A stretch of 64,000 nucleotides of DNA from Sphyrna mokarran (Eukaryota), in the NCBI GenBank assembly GCA_024679065.1, contig JAGIQG010000009.1:81282001-81346000 (forward strand), written 5' to 3'. Under the pieces are notes generated by a model that worked only from the letters and a program-made list of their open reading frames with translations, searched no databases and was not told the origin of the DNA. Positions within the stretch are counted from its first letter, which is position 1. Every line of letters begins with the position of its first letter. Positions 2,506 through 64,000 of this stretch are shown here, in pieces. The position numbers were made by a program, and so were the translations under genes.

Positions 2506-2767
2506 TCTGTCTCTGACTCACTCACTCACTCATCTCTTTCTCTCTCACTCTTTCTCTCTCTCTGTTCTCTCAATGTATCTGTGTTTTATTGGGAGTGTTG
2601 AGAATTTTAATTTGAGATGAAAATCTTTCAGCTGCTCTTCATATGTGAACATGGAGAATAAGAGGGAAACTCAAGGCCTTCAGTGAGCGGTGGACACCAC
2701 AGGGACTGGAGTGTGTAGTGGACAGTGCAAATAATTTGTTCAGTTTCCTTTCTTGTGTTTCTTAGAT

Positions 2768-3340
2768 ATTATATAAAACTGTGGGATGTGTCAGTACAGG
2801 AGGTGGGACTGTGTGTCCATTATTATATATTATATAAAACTGTGGGATGTGTCAGTACAGGAGGTGGGACTGTGTGTCCATTATTATATATTATATAAAA
2901 CTGTGGGATGTGTCCATTATTATATATTATATAAAACTGTGGGATGTGTCAGTACAGGAGGTGGGACTGTGTGTCCATTATTATATATTATATAAAACTG
3001 TGGGATGTGTCAGTACAGGAGGTGGGACTGTGTGTCCATTATTATATATTATATAAAACTGTGGGATGTGTCAGTACAGGAGGTGGGACTGTGTGTCCAT
3101 TATTATATATTATATAAAACTGTGGGATGTGTCAGTACAGGAGGTGGGACTGTGTGTCCATTATTATATATTATATAAAACTGTGGGATGTGTCAGTACA
3201 GGAGGTGGGACTGTGTGTCCATTATTATATATTATATAAAACTGTGGGATGTGTCAGTACAGGAGGTGAGACTGTGTGTCCATTATTATATATTATATAA
3301 AACTGTGGGATGTGTCAGTGCAGGAGGTGGGACTGTGTGT
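2768..3340. repeat. 61-bp minisatellite between J1 and V1 (about 10 units, one truncated to 36 bp)
   Basis: Unit ATTATATATTATATAAAACTGTGGGATGTGTCAGTACAGGAGGTGGGACTGTGTGTCCATT; near-identical tandem copies without spacers. Confidence 0.97.
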
Positions 3341-3373: not shown

Positions 3374-3671
3374 TAGGAGTAGCTGTTCCATTGCTGACAG
3401 TAATAATCAGCGACATCCTCATTCTGAACATTGCTGATTGTCAGAGTGAATCTTGTCCCAGATCCACTGCCGCTGAATCGGTCGGATACTCCTGATGCAG
3501 TAGTTGATGCACGATAGATCAGCAGTGCCGGTTTCTGTCCTTCTCGCTGTTGATACCAATTCACTGCATTGCTAACCGACTGACTGGCTGTACAGGTGAT
3601 GGTGGCGGTCTGTCCCAGGCTCACTGACAGTACCGGGGGAGTCTGGGTCATGATGATCTCTCCATTGATAC
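3374..3671 (-). CDS. IGKV: Ig kappa-type light chain V exon, cluster 1 (…[23 protein letters not shown]…WYQQ…[11 protein letters not shown])
   Basis: V-domain hallmarks (Cys, [17 protein letters not shown]); AG acceptor at 3672-3673; ends at a 12-RSS (V12/J23 is the kappa configuration); open frame. Confidence 0.97.
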
Positions 3672-19795: not shown

Positions 19796-20124
19796 CTAGG
19801 CACATTCTGAACTCCTGACACTCTTGCTGAGGGGAGAGGAGAGGCTCACGTGGGTGAGGGCACAGGAGAAGCGAGCGTTGGACTCCCAGTCGGAGCCAGA
19901 GAGGGTCAGCAGGCTGCTGACGCTGTAGGTGTTGTCCGAAGCTCGCAGGTAGTTGCTGGTCTGAATCCCGTTGGAAATGGCTGCACCGTCCTTCTTCCAC
20001 TTCACCTCCACCTCATCGGGATAGAAGTGATCGGCAAGGCACACCAGGGTGGCAGTGCCCTTGGTCTTGACCTCCTCCGGGGAGGGGGGCAGCAGGGTCA
20101 GCGTGGGTTGTGAATTCTCACGGG
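19796..20124 (-). CDS. IGKC: Ig kappa-type light chain constant exon, cluster 2 (TRENSQPTLTLLPPSPEEVKTKGTATLVCLADHFYP…SKSVRSSECA)
   Basis: Polypyrimidine-CAG acceptor at 20125-20127; phase 1, matching the J donor. C1-set motifs ATLVC, FYP, W, YSVSSLLTL, FSCALTH; penultimate Cys; TAG at 19796-19798. Confidence 0.97.
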
Positions 20125-26627: not shown

Positions 26628-26666
26628 CACACTGACAGTTTCCAGTGCAGGAGCTGTACAAAAACC
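26628..26666 (+). promoter_or_regulatory. Recombination signal sequence, 23-bp spacer (J2)
   Basis: CACACTG 26628-26634, 23 nt, ACAAAAACC 26658-26666. Confidence 0.96.
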
Positions 26667-26957
26667 TCCGTCTCTCTGACTCACTCACTCATCTCTTTCT
26701 CTCTCACCCTATCTCTCTCACACTTTCGCGCTCACTCTTTCTCTCTCTCTCTCTGTTTCCCTGAATGTCTCTGTATTTTGTTCTAAGTGTTGAGAATTCT
26801 AATTTGAGATGATAAATATTTCAGCTGCTCTTCATATGTGAACATGGAGAGTAAGAGGGAAATTCGAGGCTTTCAGCGAGCAGTGGATACCACAGGGATT
26901 GGAGTGTGTAGTGGACAGTGCAAATAATTTGCCCCGCTTCCTTTCTTGTGTTTATTA

Positions 26958-27132
26958 ATTATTATATAAAACTGTGGGATGTGTCAATGCAGGAGGTGGG
27001 ACTGTGTGTCCATTGTTATATATTATATAAAACTGTGGGATGTGTCAGTACAGGAGGTGGGACTGTGTGTCCATTATTATATATTATATGAAACTGTGGG
27101 ATGTGTCAGTACAGGAGGTGGGACTGTGTGTG
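26958..27132. repeat. 61-bp minisatellite between J2 and V2 (about 3 units)
   Basis: Same unit as 2768-3340. Confidence 0.93.
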
Positions 27133-27164: not shown

Positions 27165-27462
27165 TAGGAGTAGCTGCTCCATTGCTGACAGTAATAATCA
27201 GCGACATCCTCATTCTGAACATTGCTGATTGTCAGGGTGAATCTTGTCCCAGATCCACTGCCGCTGAATCGGTCGGATACCCCTGATGCAGTATTTGATG
27301 CACGATAGATCAGCAGAGCCGGTTTCTGTCCTTCTCGCTGTTGATACCAACCCACATAGCTGCTAACAGATTGACTGGCCGTACAGGTGATGGTGGCGGT
27401 CTGGCCCAGGCTCACTGACAGCACCGCGGGAGTCTGGGTCAAGATGATCTCTCCATTGATAC
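27165..27462 (-). CDS. IGKV: Ig kappa-type V exon, cluster 2 (…[17 protein letters not shown]…[11 protein letters not shown])
   Basis: Intact V domain; AG acceptor at 27463-27464; 12-RSS. Confidence 0.97.
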
Positions 27463-27648
27463 CTGAGGGGTAATAGAGAAACAGAGTGAAGTCAGAACTG
27501 TCACAGAAAGAGGCTGTACAATGAGATATTGTTGGAGACACTGACTGTTCCTCTCCTTTCAGCATTTTCCCTTCAATCACAAGTCAGGAGAATTGGATTG
27601 AAATGGAGAGCAGGAAAATATTGAAGGTGGAAAGAGAGAGATTAGTAC

Positions 27649-53135: not shown

Positions 53136-53464
53136 CTAGGCACATTCTGAACTCCTGACACTCTTGCTGAGGGGAGAGGAGAGGCTCACGTGGGTGAGGG
53201 CACAGGAGAAGCGAGCGTTGGACTCCCAGTCGGAGCCAGAGAGGGTCAGCAGGCTGCTGACACTGTAGGTGTTGTCCGAAGCTCGCAGGTAGTTGCTGGT
53301 CTGAATCCCGTTGGAAATGGCTGCACCGTCCTTCTTCCACTTCACCTCCACCTCATCGGGATAGAAGTGATCGGCAAGGCACACCAGGGTGGCAGTGCCC
53401 TTGGTCTTGACCTCCTCCGGGGAGGGGGGCAGCAGGGTCAGCGTGGGTTGTGAATTCTCACGGG
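53136..53464 (-). CDS. IGKC: Ig kappa-type constant exon, cluster 3
   Basis: CAG acceptor at 53465-53467; protein identical to 19796-20124; TAG at 53136-53138. Confidence 0.97.
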
Positions 53465-58683: not shown

Positions 58684-59485
58684 GAGAAAGACGTCGACTT
58701 AGAGGAGATCTAATAGAGGTGTACAAGATTAAGAGGGGTATAGATAGAATAAACAGGATTAAGCTTTTTCTTAGGATGAACTCGAATAGCACGAGGGGTC
58801 ACGGGCTTAGGGTGAGGGGGGTAAGGTATAATTTGGATGCTAGAGGGAGTTTTTTCACACAGAGGGTGGTGGGGGTATGGAATGCGCTGCCAAGTAAAGT
58901 GGTGGAGGCAGGTACTCTGGAGTTATTTAAGAAATACTTAGATGGGCACATGAACAGAATGGGAATGGAGGGGTATAGAAAACTGATTTAAAATAGGCAT
59001 CATGAGCCTTGGGAGTCCCTGGGAAGTGTGTAAATAGATGATGATATTGATGTACTTGTTTTTATCCTACAGGTGCTTTGGTCCACCTTGTTGTCTAACA
59101 AGGGGCATACACGCGATGGGTCGTGAGAGGGCTGCTCTTGGATCTTTTTCGAGAGTATCCTAGTGCTTCACGTCGTTAGTGTACGCTTGACCTGGACCAT
59201 TTGATGGGCAACACGACAGCTCAGTGACTATCTCTGTGCAGTGCAGATACATGGATTTGGGCCCGTGTCTGTGGGAGGTTGCGCATTCTCCCCGTGCTTG
59301 TGTGGATTTTCTCCGGGTACTCCGGTTTCCTCCCACATCCCAAAGATGTGCTCTTAGACTAATTGGCAAAACAAATTCTCCCTAAATTGTCTTAAATTTG
59401 GTTTTTAATCCATAGATCTATAAACATAGACAGGGATCACGGGTAGAAGTGGGAACATCGGGGTGAAGGACATATTAGTTTGTTA
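58684..59485 (+). mobile_element. CR1-type ORF2 3' end followed by a long 3' region containing a V-SINE-like body
   Basis: ORF 58719-58991 FFTQRVVGVWNALP…; SINE-like body at 59215-59390 related to the insert at 301-744. Confidence 0.65.
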
Positions 59486-60785
59486 TTTTTCATGAAATAA
59501 CAGGGAAATGGATAAAAAATTCAACTGTACACCTGAGCTGTGTGTACTGGTACTGATGTGACAGAATGTAAGTTGAAACATTTTTTTGGGTGCTCCAGTT
59601 TCCGTCCACATTCCAAGATGGCCAAGAATATAAAGTGACCAGCATCTGGGAAATTCCGATGTGGGTTATATTTGACTGACCAGACCCGAGAGTAGATGGA
59701 ATATCCCATTCCAGGTTAGATGGATTGGCAATGCTAAATTGCCCCGAGTGTGTTCTTTAGGTGGGTTAGCAATGGTAAATGTGCAGGGTTACAGGGAGCC
59801 TAGGTAAGAAGCTCTTTTGGAGAATCGGGTGAAAAGATTTCCCTCACATCTCTCAAAATTTCCTGCCACTGTGATCAACGGGAAAAGTTTCCTCATATCT
59901 ACCCTATCTCTGTCTCTCATAATTCTGTCGATGGACTGAATATCCTCCTCCTGCACTGTCGGGATTCAATGGCTAATAAAAAAAACTACACGGACTGTGT
60001 AAGGTTTCCATAGGTGATGGGATCCATTTTAAATGATCCCTGTTGTGACCAATCAAGGGCAGGATTCCAGCTGATTATTCCTCACCCAGAGGAAAACAAA
60101 ATTGGGATCCAGTTCAGGCAGTTAACAAATGAGGGACCCTGTCTGAGGACTAGTCACAACATGTACACAGCAAGATCCCACATACAGCAATGAGAACAAT
60201 CAGCATTTCCAGTGATGTTGGATCCGGGATAAATGTCGGATTGAACTCATCCCAAAGAGAAAGTAACAAAAGCCTGGAACACTGAAGCCACTGGATTGTG
60301 AGCCCTGCTGTGGCTGTTTGTCATCAGAACTTCAGCAAGAGAGAAGCAGGGAGTGGAGAGAGCAGAGTGAAAGCTGGGGCAGGTGGCACCTCGGTGTCTC
60401 ACTGTGCTGCTGCTGTGATCAGTTATATCAGAGAGTGAGACAGAGAGTTCAACTTCACATCAAACTCTGCCTGTGTGTGTCACACTGAGACTGACAGGAG
60501 TCCAGAGAGTGATTTCACTCCATGCTGCAGGAATGTGAATACCGTCTGCAAACGTCCAGATCTCCTCCACACGGTGGGTAAAAGCTGCTTACTGAAATCT
60601 TGCTGCTTAAAGAGGGGAATGGAAGGAAAGAAATACAGCTGGACTCCCTGTTCTACACAATGTTCTTCAATCAACCATTTCATTGACTGTAACTTCCTCA
60701 CTAACATCTTCAACTATTCAGTATTCGTGTTTGAGAAAGTTTCAACATTGAAAGGGTTAATAACGGAGGATTGGGCTTTACTTAC

Positions 60786-60820
60786 TCAGTCTGAGTTTGG
60801 TTCCTTTAGCAAACGTAAGA
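60786..60820 (-). CDS. IGKJ: Ig kappa-type J segment, cluster 3 (LTFAKGTKLRL)
   Basis: Identical to J1 and J2; GTAAGT donor; 23-RSS. Confidence 0.95.
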
Positions 60821-60859
60821 CACACTGACAGCTTCCAGTGCAGGAGCTGAACAAAAACC
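60821..60859 (+). promoter_or_regulatory. Recombination signal sequence, 23-bp spacer (J3)
   Basis: CACACTG 60821-60827, 23 nt, ACAAAAACC 60851-60859. Confidence 0.96.
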
Positions 60860-61156
60860 TCTGTCTCTGACTCACTCACTCACTGACTCATCTCTTTCTC
60901 TCTCACTCTTTTTCTCTCACTCTTTCTCTCTCTCTGTTTTTCTCTCGCTCTGTTACTCTCAATATCCGTGTGTTTTATTGGGAGTGTTGAGAATTCTAAT
61001 GCGAGATGATAAATCTTTTTGCTGCTTTTCATATGTGAACATGGAGAGTAAGAGGGAAACTCAAGGCCTTCAGTGAGCAGTGGACACCACAGGGACTGGA
61101 GTGTGTAGTGGACAGTGCAAATAATTTGTTCAGTTTCCTTTCTGTTGTTTATTAAA

Positions 61157-61449
61157 TATTACAGAAAACTGTGAATTGTCAGTACAGGAAGTGGGATTGT
61201 GTGTCCATTATTATATATTATATAAAACTGTGGGATTTGTCAGTACAGGAGGTGGGACTGTGTGTCCATTATTATATATTATATAAAACTGTGGGATGTG
61301 TCAGTACAGGAGGTGGGACTGTGTGTCCATTATTATATATTATATAAATCTGTGGGATGTGTCAGTACAGGAGGTGGGACTGTGTGTCCATTATTATATA
61401 TTATATAAAACTGTGGGATGTGTCAGTACAGGAGGTGGGACTGTGTGTG
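61157..61449. repeat. 61-bp minisatellite between J3 and V3 (about 5 units, first one degenerate)
   Basis: Same unit as 2768-3340. Confidence 0.93.
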
Positions 61450-61453
61450 TTGG

Positions 61454-61481
61454 GGTTTTTGTAAGGCTCTGTATCACTGTG
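61454..61481 (-). promoter_or_regulatory. Recombination signal sequence, 12-bp spacer (V3)
   Basis: CACAGTG-ATACAGAGCCTT-ACAAAAACC on the minus strand. Confidence 0.98.
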
Positions 61482-61779
61482 TAGGCGTAGCTGTTATCTT
61501 GCTGACAGTAATAATCAGCGACATCCTCATTCTGAACATTGCTGATTGTCAGGGTGAATCTTGTCCCAGATCCACTGCCGCTGAATCGGTCGGATACTCC
61601 TGTGAATCGCTTTGATGCATCGTAGATCAGCAGAGCCGGTTTCTGTCCTTCTCGCTGTTGATACCATTGCAGATTATTGCTAACAGATTGACTGGCCGTA
61701 CAGGTGATGGTGGCGGTCTGGCCCAGGCTCAATGACAGCACCGGGGGAGTCTGGGTCATGATGATCTCTCCATTGATAC
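61482..61779 (-). CDS. IGKV: Ig kappa-type V exon, cluster 3 (…[17 protein letters not shown]…DASKRFTG…[11 protein letters not shown])
   Basis: Intact V domain; AG acceptor at 61780-61781; 12-RSS. Confidence 0.97.
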
Positions 61780-61965
61780 CTGAGGGATAATAGAGAAACA
61801 GAGTGAAGTAAGAACTGTCACAGAAAGAGGCTGGACAATGAGATATTGTTGGAGACACTGACTGTTCCTCTCCTTTCAACATTTTCCCTTCAATCACAAG
61901 TCAGGAGAATTGGATTGAAATAGAGAGCAGGAAAATATTCAAGGTGGAAGGAGAGAGATTAGTAC

Positions 61966-62014
61966 CTGCGATGCAGAATGCCAGAGGCCAGAGCAGCTGG
62001 ATGGCTGAAATCAT
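61966..62014 (-). CDS. IGKV: Leader exon of V3, MISAIQLLWPLAFCIA
   Basis: ATG at 62014; GT donor at 61965-61964. Confidence 0.93.
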
Positions 62015-62172: not shown

Positions 62173-62579
62173 CTTCTCTCTCCAGAGTGTCTGAGGGACA
62201 GAGACTGAGGGACAGAGACTGAGGTACAGTGACCCTCAGTCTCTGTCCCTGAGACTTGTCCCTCAGATTCTCTCTCTCATTCTCTCGATATCTCGACCTT
62301 CACTCGCTGTCTCTCTCTCTCTCTCTCTCATTCTCAGTCTTTCTCTCTCGATATCTGTCCCTCAGTCTCTGTCTCCCTCGCTCTATTGATACGTCTCCCT
62401 CAATTGCTGTCTCTTTCACTCCATTAATCTCTGTTTCTATCCCCCACCCTCTCACTGTCTCTGTTTCTTGTCCTTCCTGTCCCACATTGTTTATTTACCC
62501 TCTCATTCACTCTTTCTTTTTCTCTCCTTATTCTCCCTCCCTCTATTCCTCAGTTTTTCCTTCACTTTATCTCATAGAG

Positions 62580-64000
62580 TCATTGAGGTTTACAGCAAGG
62601 AAACAGGCCCTTCAGCCCCACTTGTCCATGCTGCCCTTTTTTTAAACTCTTTACTCCAGTTGCTGCATTTGGCCCATATCCATCGATACCCATCTTACCC
62701 CTGTGACTGCCGAAATGCTTTTTAAAAGACAAAATTGTACCTGCCTCTGTTACTATCTTTGGCAACTTGTTCCAGACACTCACCACCCTCTGTGTGAAAA
62801 CATTGCCTATTTGGACACTTTTATATCTCTCCCCGACTCGCTTTAAACATCTGTCCTCCTGTTTTAGAATCCCCAACTTTGAGAAAAAATATTGATTGTC
62901 ATGTTGACCTATGTCCCTCATTACATTATAAACCTCTTTAAGGTCACCCTTCAGTCTTCCACGCTCCAGACAAAAAAGTCCCAGTCGATCCAGCCTCTCC
63001 TGATAACCCAAACCATCAAATCCGTAGCATTCTAGTCTTTTCTGCACTCTTTCTAATTTAATAATTTTTTTCTATAACAGGGTGACCAGGACTGTACACA
63101 GTATTCCAAATGTGGCCTTACCAACGTCTTGTACAACTTCAACATAATGTTCTGACTCCGATATTCCATGTTCTGACTAATGAAAGCAAGCATGCCGAAT
63201 GCCTTCTTCACCCTTTTGACAACCTGTGACTCCACCTTCAAGGAGCTATGAACATTTACCCCTCAACCTTTTTGTTCTGTAACTCTCCCCAGTGCCCCAC
63301 CAGTAACTAAGTAAGTCCTGCCTTGGTTCAATCTACCAAAATACATCACCTTACATTTATCGAAATTAAACTGCAGCTATCATTTGTCAGCCTATTAGTC
63401 CAATTCCTGTTGCAATCGGAGATAACTTTCTTCACTGTCCACTATGCCACCAGTCTTAGTGTCATCTGCAAACATATTAATCATATCTCTATATTCTCAT
63501 CCAAATCATTAATATAAACGACAAATCACATTGACCCAGCATCGACCCTTGTGGAACATCACTCATTCTCTTTGTTCCTCTGTATTCTCACCTCACTCTG
63601 CCCCAGAAGAGGTGCCATCCTCCTGGGATCCACTCTGTCAGTCCCCTCACAATCTGATATGGTTCAATAAGATCACCTCTCATTCTTTTAAACTCCAATG
63701 GGTTTAGGCCCAACCTATCCAACTTTTCTTCAAATGATAACCCCTCACCCCTCAATATGTTGAGTGAACCTTCTCCGAACTGCTTCAAACACAATGATAT
63801 CCTTTTTCAAACAAGAAGACCTAAACTACTACACGCAGTATTCCAGATGTCATCTCAGCAAGACCCTGTACAACTGCAGTAAAACTTCCCTATTTATATA
63901 TTCCATTCTCCTTGTAATAAACACCAACATTCCGTTTGTCTTCCTAATCACTTGCTGTAGCTGCAAACTAACTTGTTGTGATTCATGTCCCAGGACAGCC
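62580..64000 (-). mobile_element. Nested degenerate CR1-type LINE fragments (paralog of 28260-29660)
   Basis: ORFs 62580-63047 and 63053-63241 ([15 protein letters not shown]). Confidence 0.85.

Follow-up and report, generated by a model that had tools for sequence, protein, structure and literature searches.

Conversion between paralogs, unequal crossover, and concerted and birth-and-death evolution are established for tandem gene families, and among light-chain genes a 12-nt V signal paired with a 23-nt J signal is the kappa arrangement. The closest described counterparts of the locus examined here are the nurse shark NS4 and horn shark type III light-chain genes, which it resembles in having a single V, a single J and a single C in each cluster, in many copies. 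NS4 is assigned to kappa or type III in the accessible part of a review (PMC5192425), and its leader intron is given as 186 bp in the accessible part of the nurse shark study (PMC2193156). Shark light-chain clusters are reported to rearrange within a cluster (accessible part of PMC5192425); mixing between clusters in the germline is thus one of the ways in which V-J pairings can be renewed. The available portions of two further papers report that long-range joins between IgH loci of sharks are rare in lymphocytes (PMC2435157) and that gene conversion occurs among shark UrIg2 domains (PMC12227049).

A tandem kappa-type locus

The window, a 64,000-nt stretch of Sphyrna mokarran DNA, holds three light-chain clusters on the minus strand, out of 27 tandem, unjoined kappa-type (NS4-like) L-V-J-C clusters that we call K01-K27; the three, c1, c2 and c3, are K08, K09 and K10. 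In each, on the minus strand, a leader and V are followed by a 12-nt signal, then by a 61-bp minisatellite, and then by a 23-nt signal with J. In c3 these are the leader exon (61966-62014), a leader intron of 186 bp (61780-61965), the NS4 length, a V exon with an open frame and a V-set domain (61482-61779), the V recombination signal (RSS) with its 12-nt spacer (61454-61481), a minisatellite of five 61-bp units (61149-61448), unique spacer on the J side (60860-61148), the J signal with its 23-nt spacer (60821-60859), the J segment (60786-60820) and, located through the list of open reading frames, a constant exon with a C1-set domain (53136-53464). The V exon, minisatellite and J signal lie at 27165-27462, 26952-27131 (three units) and 26628-26666 in c2, and at 3374-3671, 2759-3340 (nine units, one with a 36-nt internal duplication) and 2467-2505 in c1, all on the minus strand. 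The c2 constant exon (19796-20119, minus strand) is likewise inside the window, and that of c1 is outside it.

Genome-wide, we counted 27 J regions, with 26 hits for V and 29 for C, and all of them lie on one contig within 0.8 Mb; a genome search found no further V, J or C outside the kappa locus. As in an NS4 or type III cluster, a unit comprises one L-V, one J and one C in shared orientation, with a 12-nt RSS after V, a 23-nt RSS before J, and C 6.4-11.3 kb downstream of each J. Pfam assigns V to V-set (1.8e-17) and C to C1-set (2.7e-23), and antibody light chains are among the matches to V. The leader exon is 98-100% identical across 26 clusters, and C is 95-100% identical among copies. Judged by arrangement, leader intron and domains, these are predicted tandem shark kappa-type (NS4-like) light-chain genes. 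K11 and K21-K27 run in the opposite direction to the remaining clusters (G000:C1548, 81.36 Mb and 81.66-81.86 Mb), and K22 has three C exons in tandem, the middle copy 86% identical (81703171-81705252 on the same contig).

The 186-bp leader intron and a V-J spacer of several hundred bases are points of likeness to nurse shark NS4, and the accessible text of PMC2193156 also marks the differences. There the spacer is about 500 bp (502-524), whereas here it spans 298-2054 bp by way of the 61-bp minisatellite; the word 'repeat' is absent from that accessible text. About 10% of NS4 genes are joined in the nurse shark (PMC2193156), in contrast to none of the 26 V genes here, and the nurse shark has some 50-60 copies, going by the available parts of PMC2193156 and PMC5192425, against 27 assembled here. 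A heptamer follows all 26 V genes, hence none is joined, and we saw no coding or signal joint. The V signals of K15, K16 and K27 carry changes in the heptamer-spacer or nonamer that may lower rearrangement. While the gene type was already known, a literature search of titles and abstract openings, with few subscription journals, turned up no published V-J minisatellite or locus-wide breakpoint map for shark kappa clusters.

Three clusters read against the whole locus

A sequence-only reading of the window had taken c3 for a c2-like V module placed on a c1-like J-C module, with the transition inside the minisatellite. Given three sequences, an odd-one-out site cannot separate kinship from private change, and we therefore polarised the sites against 22 other clusters. 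The differences that had been named on the two sides are indeed present in the alignment, where an 11-nt indel marker is also visible, but they do not serve as evidence of kinship, since most are private or minor alleles of c2 (J side) or of c1 (V side). On the J side (59712-61199) the odd one out is c2 at 56 sites, c3 at 31 and c1 at 22; 27 of the 56 are private to c2, and c1 and c3 share a minority allele at only three of them. One of the 11 named J-side substitutions (61063) is a shared minority allele. All five named V-side sites (61452, 61553, 61634, 61697, 61721) are c1's own alleles, found in 0-2 of about 21 other clusters, and so give no V-side kinship of c3 with c2.

The kin pair in the promoter-L-V region is c1 and c2. 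Here c3 is the odd one out at 24 of 41 sites (c1 at 11, c2 at 6), and 13 minority alleles are common to c1 and c2, with one CDR2 block accounting for 7. Distances in the V module are 0.025 for c1/c2 (rank 9 of 300 pairs), 0.042 for c2/c3 (rank 119) and 0.050 for c1/c3; in the J module they are 0.045 for c1/c3, 0.065 for c1/c2 and 0.069 for c2/c3. The c1/c2 kin tract covers at least 27179-27633 (minus strand), leader intron and V, and ends in the interval from CDR3 through the RSS to the array.

Other parts of the sequence-only reading stood. The kinship of c2 and c3 that it saw in the upstream 2 kb is real, but only beyond the promoter, upstream of 62244, where 130 of 220 c1-odd sites are shared minority alleles; the block of minority alleles common to c2 and c3 (group K09, K10, K23, K25) runs from 62244 to 64000. 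The upstream hairpin occurs in 6 of 27 clusters, c2 and c3 among them, and the intron block that it had noted near 1235 and 59495 extends over 59462-59616 in c3 and is found in 6 of 27 clusters, c1 and c3 (84% identical) among them. Several old classes, differing by as much as 18%, make up the upstream 2 kb as a whole (62250-64000), and promoter and leader are about 2% apart.

A three-sequence scan (200 permutations for each breakpoint, both p=0.005) placed the best three-way breakpoint not in the array, as had been proposed, but at 62178-62268, about 750 nt away, where the c2/c3 kinship begins and extends upstream. A weaker second breakpoint at 61494-61496, the end of CDR3, sets c1=c2 on the V side against a c2-odd J side. 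On marker polarisation, distances and breakpoints, c3 does not combine the V module of c2 with the J-C module of c1. In 1314 of 2024 triplets (0.65, with two thirds expected by chance) the closest pair in the V module differs from that in the J module, so that one triplet shows nothing.

Exchange between clusters across the locus

Among 26 clusters, 55 tracts of shared non-consensus alleles exceed the permutation maximum (18.7 in 15 permutations). The K09/K23 tract has 138 shared derived sites and 5 mismatches over 1311 nt, and the K04/K10 tract 62 shared derived sites and no mismatch over 1176 nt. Such bounded tracts of shared derived sites between otherwise ordinary paralogs are what marks non-allelic gene conversion. 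The mosaic pattern is directly observed, as are the dispersed tract ends: the strong ones are found in the upstream sequence, near the promoter edge, within V and along the J-C intron.

The same picture emerges from six block trees, which in their 15 pairings have 0-3 of 19-21 splits in common, while every block has splits at UFBoot 90-100. The V-side and J-side trees share 1 of 21 splits, an incongruence that the sequence-only reading had called for; the conflict is not special to that pair, as all block pairs conflict likewise. Its broader claim of germline exchange between clusters is therefore upheld by supported conflict between block trees and by the decoupled histories of V modules and J-C modules, but the minisatellite as the focus of that exchange is not. 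Within the window, the tree partners of c2 are K10, K23 and K25 upstream, K08 in the V module (93) and K02 on the J side (99), and those of c1 are K09 in V and K04 on the J side (99). Kinship declines with chromosomal distance in three of five blocks (rho -0.14 to -0.19). Most locus-wide tests cover 24 clusters of one assembly, with phase as assembled; K19 was left out of the counts throughout, and K13 (which has no V) and K12 were left out of many. The pair model counted a 7-nt CDR2 block as seven sites, and later tests collapsed linked neighbours.

We give hardly any credence to an account without recombination, in which rapid radiation, recurrent mutation and long branches produced the pattern. 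It would explain the J-side and V-exon markers named in the sequence-only reading, mostly private alleles, but it cannot yield the K09/K23 or K04/K10 tracts and is refuted for the flanks; the results also stand when CpG sites are removed. That the mosaic might be an assembly chimera of near-identical paralogs or haplotypes is very improbable. The most perfect matches do begin at runs of N, including 34,554 bp at 100% between K17-K18 and K19-K20, and so do K06/K12 (100% identical) and K11/K12 (98.4%); we set aside K17/K19, K18/K20, K06/K12 and K11/K12 as clean recent events for that reason. The perfect duplicates may be haplotype or assembly copies, and the true number of clusters may be 24-25 per haplotype. 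The window and K01-K10, however, are free of N, and most tract partners are 1-4% apart with private alleles, whereas a chimera would copy its donor exactly.

With moderate confidence, we attribute the mosaic to an ordinary patchwork among paralogs, made by non-allelic gene conversion with occasional unequal crossover, whose ends are scattered along the unit. Misaligned paralogs, 90-99% alike, would act as repair templates in the germline, and conversion or crossover would have copied tracts of roughly 0.1-3 kb between clusters repeatedly, with nearer clusters probably exchanging somewhat more. Conversion tracts would mostly be shorter than the V-to-J span and unequal crossovers rarer; with most tracts shorter than that distance, V modules and J-C modules would drift apart in ancestry, and some tract ends would land in the RSS-array interval by chance. 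The locus resembles tandem families under concerted and birth-and-death evolution: its tracts form mosaics, its block trees conflict, C and leader are homogenised, kinship declines with distance, and one copy is broken. It differs in that the mapping here spans a whole shark kappa locus, and in that a minisatellite sits inside the segment removed by V-J joining.

The minisatellite as a proposed swap point

The sequence-only reading had placed the exchange in the minisatellite, with whole promoter-L-V modules moved onto other J-C modules, and had expected breakpoints to cluster there. None of the 55 strong tracts ends in the array. When the threshold was lowered, 0 of 47, 0 of 66 and 0 of 107 tracts ended within 150 nt of it at three settings, and 4 of 165 did so at another. 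Simulated swaps of the whole V side were detected in 146 of 150 cases at 0.5% divergence per side, 120 of 150 at 1% and 71 of 150 at 1.5%, a power that is overstated, since CDR selection is left out of the simulation and the V part of K18/K22 escaped the tract score.

Comparisons with control positions point the same way. In 1449 of 2024 triplets the closest pair differs between the two sides of the array, and in 1457 of 2024 it differs between the two sides of a point deep in the J-C intron, with two thirds expected by chance. The genealogy correlation across the array is r=-0.02, which 7 of 16 equal-gap controls match with p>0.05, and larger modules keep some correlation across it (r=0.15, p=0.005); the markers of the core have a low reliability (0.3). 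A CDR2 type goes together with a spacer deletion in 4 of 5 cases (p=0.028, post hoc), a residual linkage across the array. No kin pair of 15 crosses the array, against 12 of 152 at intron controls, a comparison of modest power (Fisher p=0.60); on a stricter base the counts are 0 of 7 and 12 of 45 (p=0.18). K18/K20 was retained and supplies 4 of the 12 control crossings, so that without it these would be fewer and the array even less distinct. The density of model switches points the other way: at 15-30 per kb in the array it is 1.2-3.4 times that of two other marker-free gaps (9-14 per kb), though below that of V and of the J spacer. We see no clear sign of the array as a special swap point; a moderate excess there would be compatible with 24 clusters.

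Some older tracts do change partners nearby. At least three kin tracts end in the CDR3-RSS-array interval, namely K18/K22 and K08/K09 (both V side) and K04/K08 (J side), as perhaps does K01/K14. K18 and K22 have a V-side distance of 0.009 and a J-side distance of 0.051, and their tract stops somewhere in an 80-nt span, from CDR3 to base 28 of the first unit, that includes the RSS. K08 has K09 as its V-side kin (0.025) and K04 as its J-side kin (0.024), and the switch falls in the RSS-array interval. In the window, c1 or c2, rather than c3, is consequently the better candidate for a transferred V module. The K08 change of kin and the K18/K22 contrast fit a focus on the minisatellite, as do the K23 array, a mosaic of K22-like and K26-like ends, and the loss of V in K13 at the array edge. 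Such a focus is nonetheless quite improbable, as no strong tract ends lie in the array, the array ends do not track their flanks, linkage remains across the array, and the very triplet from which the idea came breaks at 62178-62268.

Nor does the mosaic need RAG. Cutting by RAG in germ cells, at the signal beside V or J, would be a form of the germline RAG activity that the sequence-only reading had invoked as a possible seed of exchange; it has a precedent in the germline RAG-like joining documented, in the accessible part of PMC2193156, for nurse shark NS4. The K18/K22 end within an RSS-containing span would also fit, unless the trace was erased by subsequent turnover of the array. The idea nevertheless gains no support from the 26 unjoined V genes, which lack a coding or signal joint, and most tract ends are far from either RSS; we regard it as extremely unlikely.

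A different way of giving the region a role would be a broad exchange hot zone of 2-3 kb, from the promoter through V and array to the J-proximal intron, of which the minisatellite would be a by-product and not the cause. Linkage is absent from 6 of 18 adjacent block pairs, and five of these form one run, roughly centred on the array, from the promoter to the first 1.1 kb of the intron, with linkage upstream of it and around C. The lack of kin pairs crossing the array agrees with such a zone, and human minisatellites have been reported to coincide with hotspots (accessible part of PMC2599865). The core, however, is the least structured part, less diverged and star-like, which lowers measurable linkage: marker reliability is 0.2-0.4 there, compared with 0.6-0.9 for most windows in the flanks. 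Linkage also fails at a second boundary, 5 kb into the J-C intron, and the enrichment is not significant. We consider the hot zone unlikely, if reasonable. The fuller proposal, in which the promoter-V-array-J core of every kappa cluster would be a germline exchange hot zone of 2-3 kb that re-pairs V modules with different spacer-J-C modules, re-deals CDRs and, over evolutionary time, stands in for the combinatorial V-J choice missing from clusters with a single V and a single J, with the minisatellite as its footprint, is doubtful but deserves consideration.

Probable array turnover

The arrays themselves vary from 1 to 28 units of 61 bp, starting 10 nt past the V nonamer, and with them the distance from V heptamer to J nonamer ranges sevenfold (298-2054 bp). 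A G-rich stretch of the unit, as read on the plus strand, presumably resembles the human minisatellite core and chi motifs. A genome search with two units returned 27 candidates, and the 150 matches listed, of 278, are all in the kappa locus. Variation in unit number is observed directly, and so is the sharing of unit blocks: K23 has its first unit and the 36-nt duplication in common with K22, and a three-unit block in common with K26, so that its 5´ end is K22-like and its 3´ end K26-like. Array halves do not follow their own flanks (5´ half and V module, r=-0.09; 3´ half and J module, r=0.04). K01, K03, K05, K07 and K24 share the loss of about 55-60 nt at the array's J end.

These features are like those of human hypervariable minisatellites as set out in the accessible part of PMC2599865, with variable unit number, variant units and transfer of blocks without clear flank exchange; unlike the human case, the donors here are paralogous clusters and not alleles alone. 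Alongside the patchwork of tracts that we favour, the minisatellite likely turns over independently, by slippage and transfer of unit blocks that leave the flanks mostly unmoved, and would mutate largely apart from them, as in human minisatellites (PMC2599865, in part).

In one cluster the array coincides with a loss. K13 (J at 81417443, G000:C1548) is without V, leader and V signal; its junction lies where a run of about 24 forward units begins, with about 9 inverted units after them, and its 5´ end is joined to a copy of a dispersed repeat by way of a short 12-bp tandem.

Consequences for the V repertoire

Since J and C are near-identical in all copies, placing a V on another J-C would alter the protein little. 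Exchange inside V would matter more than re-pairing of V with J-C, as CDR1, CDR2 and CDR3 are weakly correlated and assort almost independently. Framework regions are conserved (pN/pS 0.51), and CDR2 (1.37) and CDR3 (1.26) are not. The sevenfold variation in V-to-J distance could, in addition, alter the frequency with which each cluster rearranges. The 7-nt CDR2 block (61603-61609 in the window) is found in eight clusters, all within K01-K14, on differing V backgrounds.
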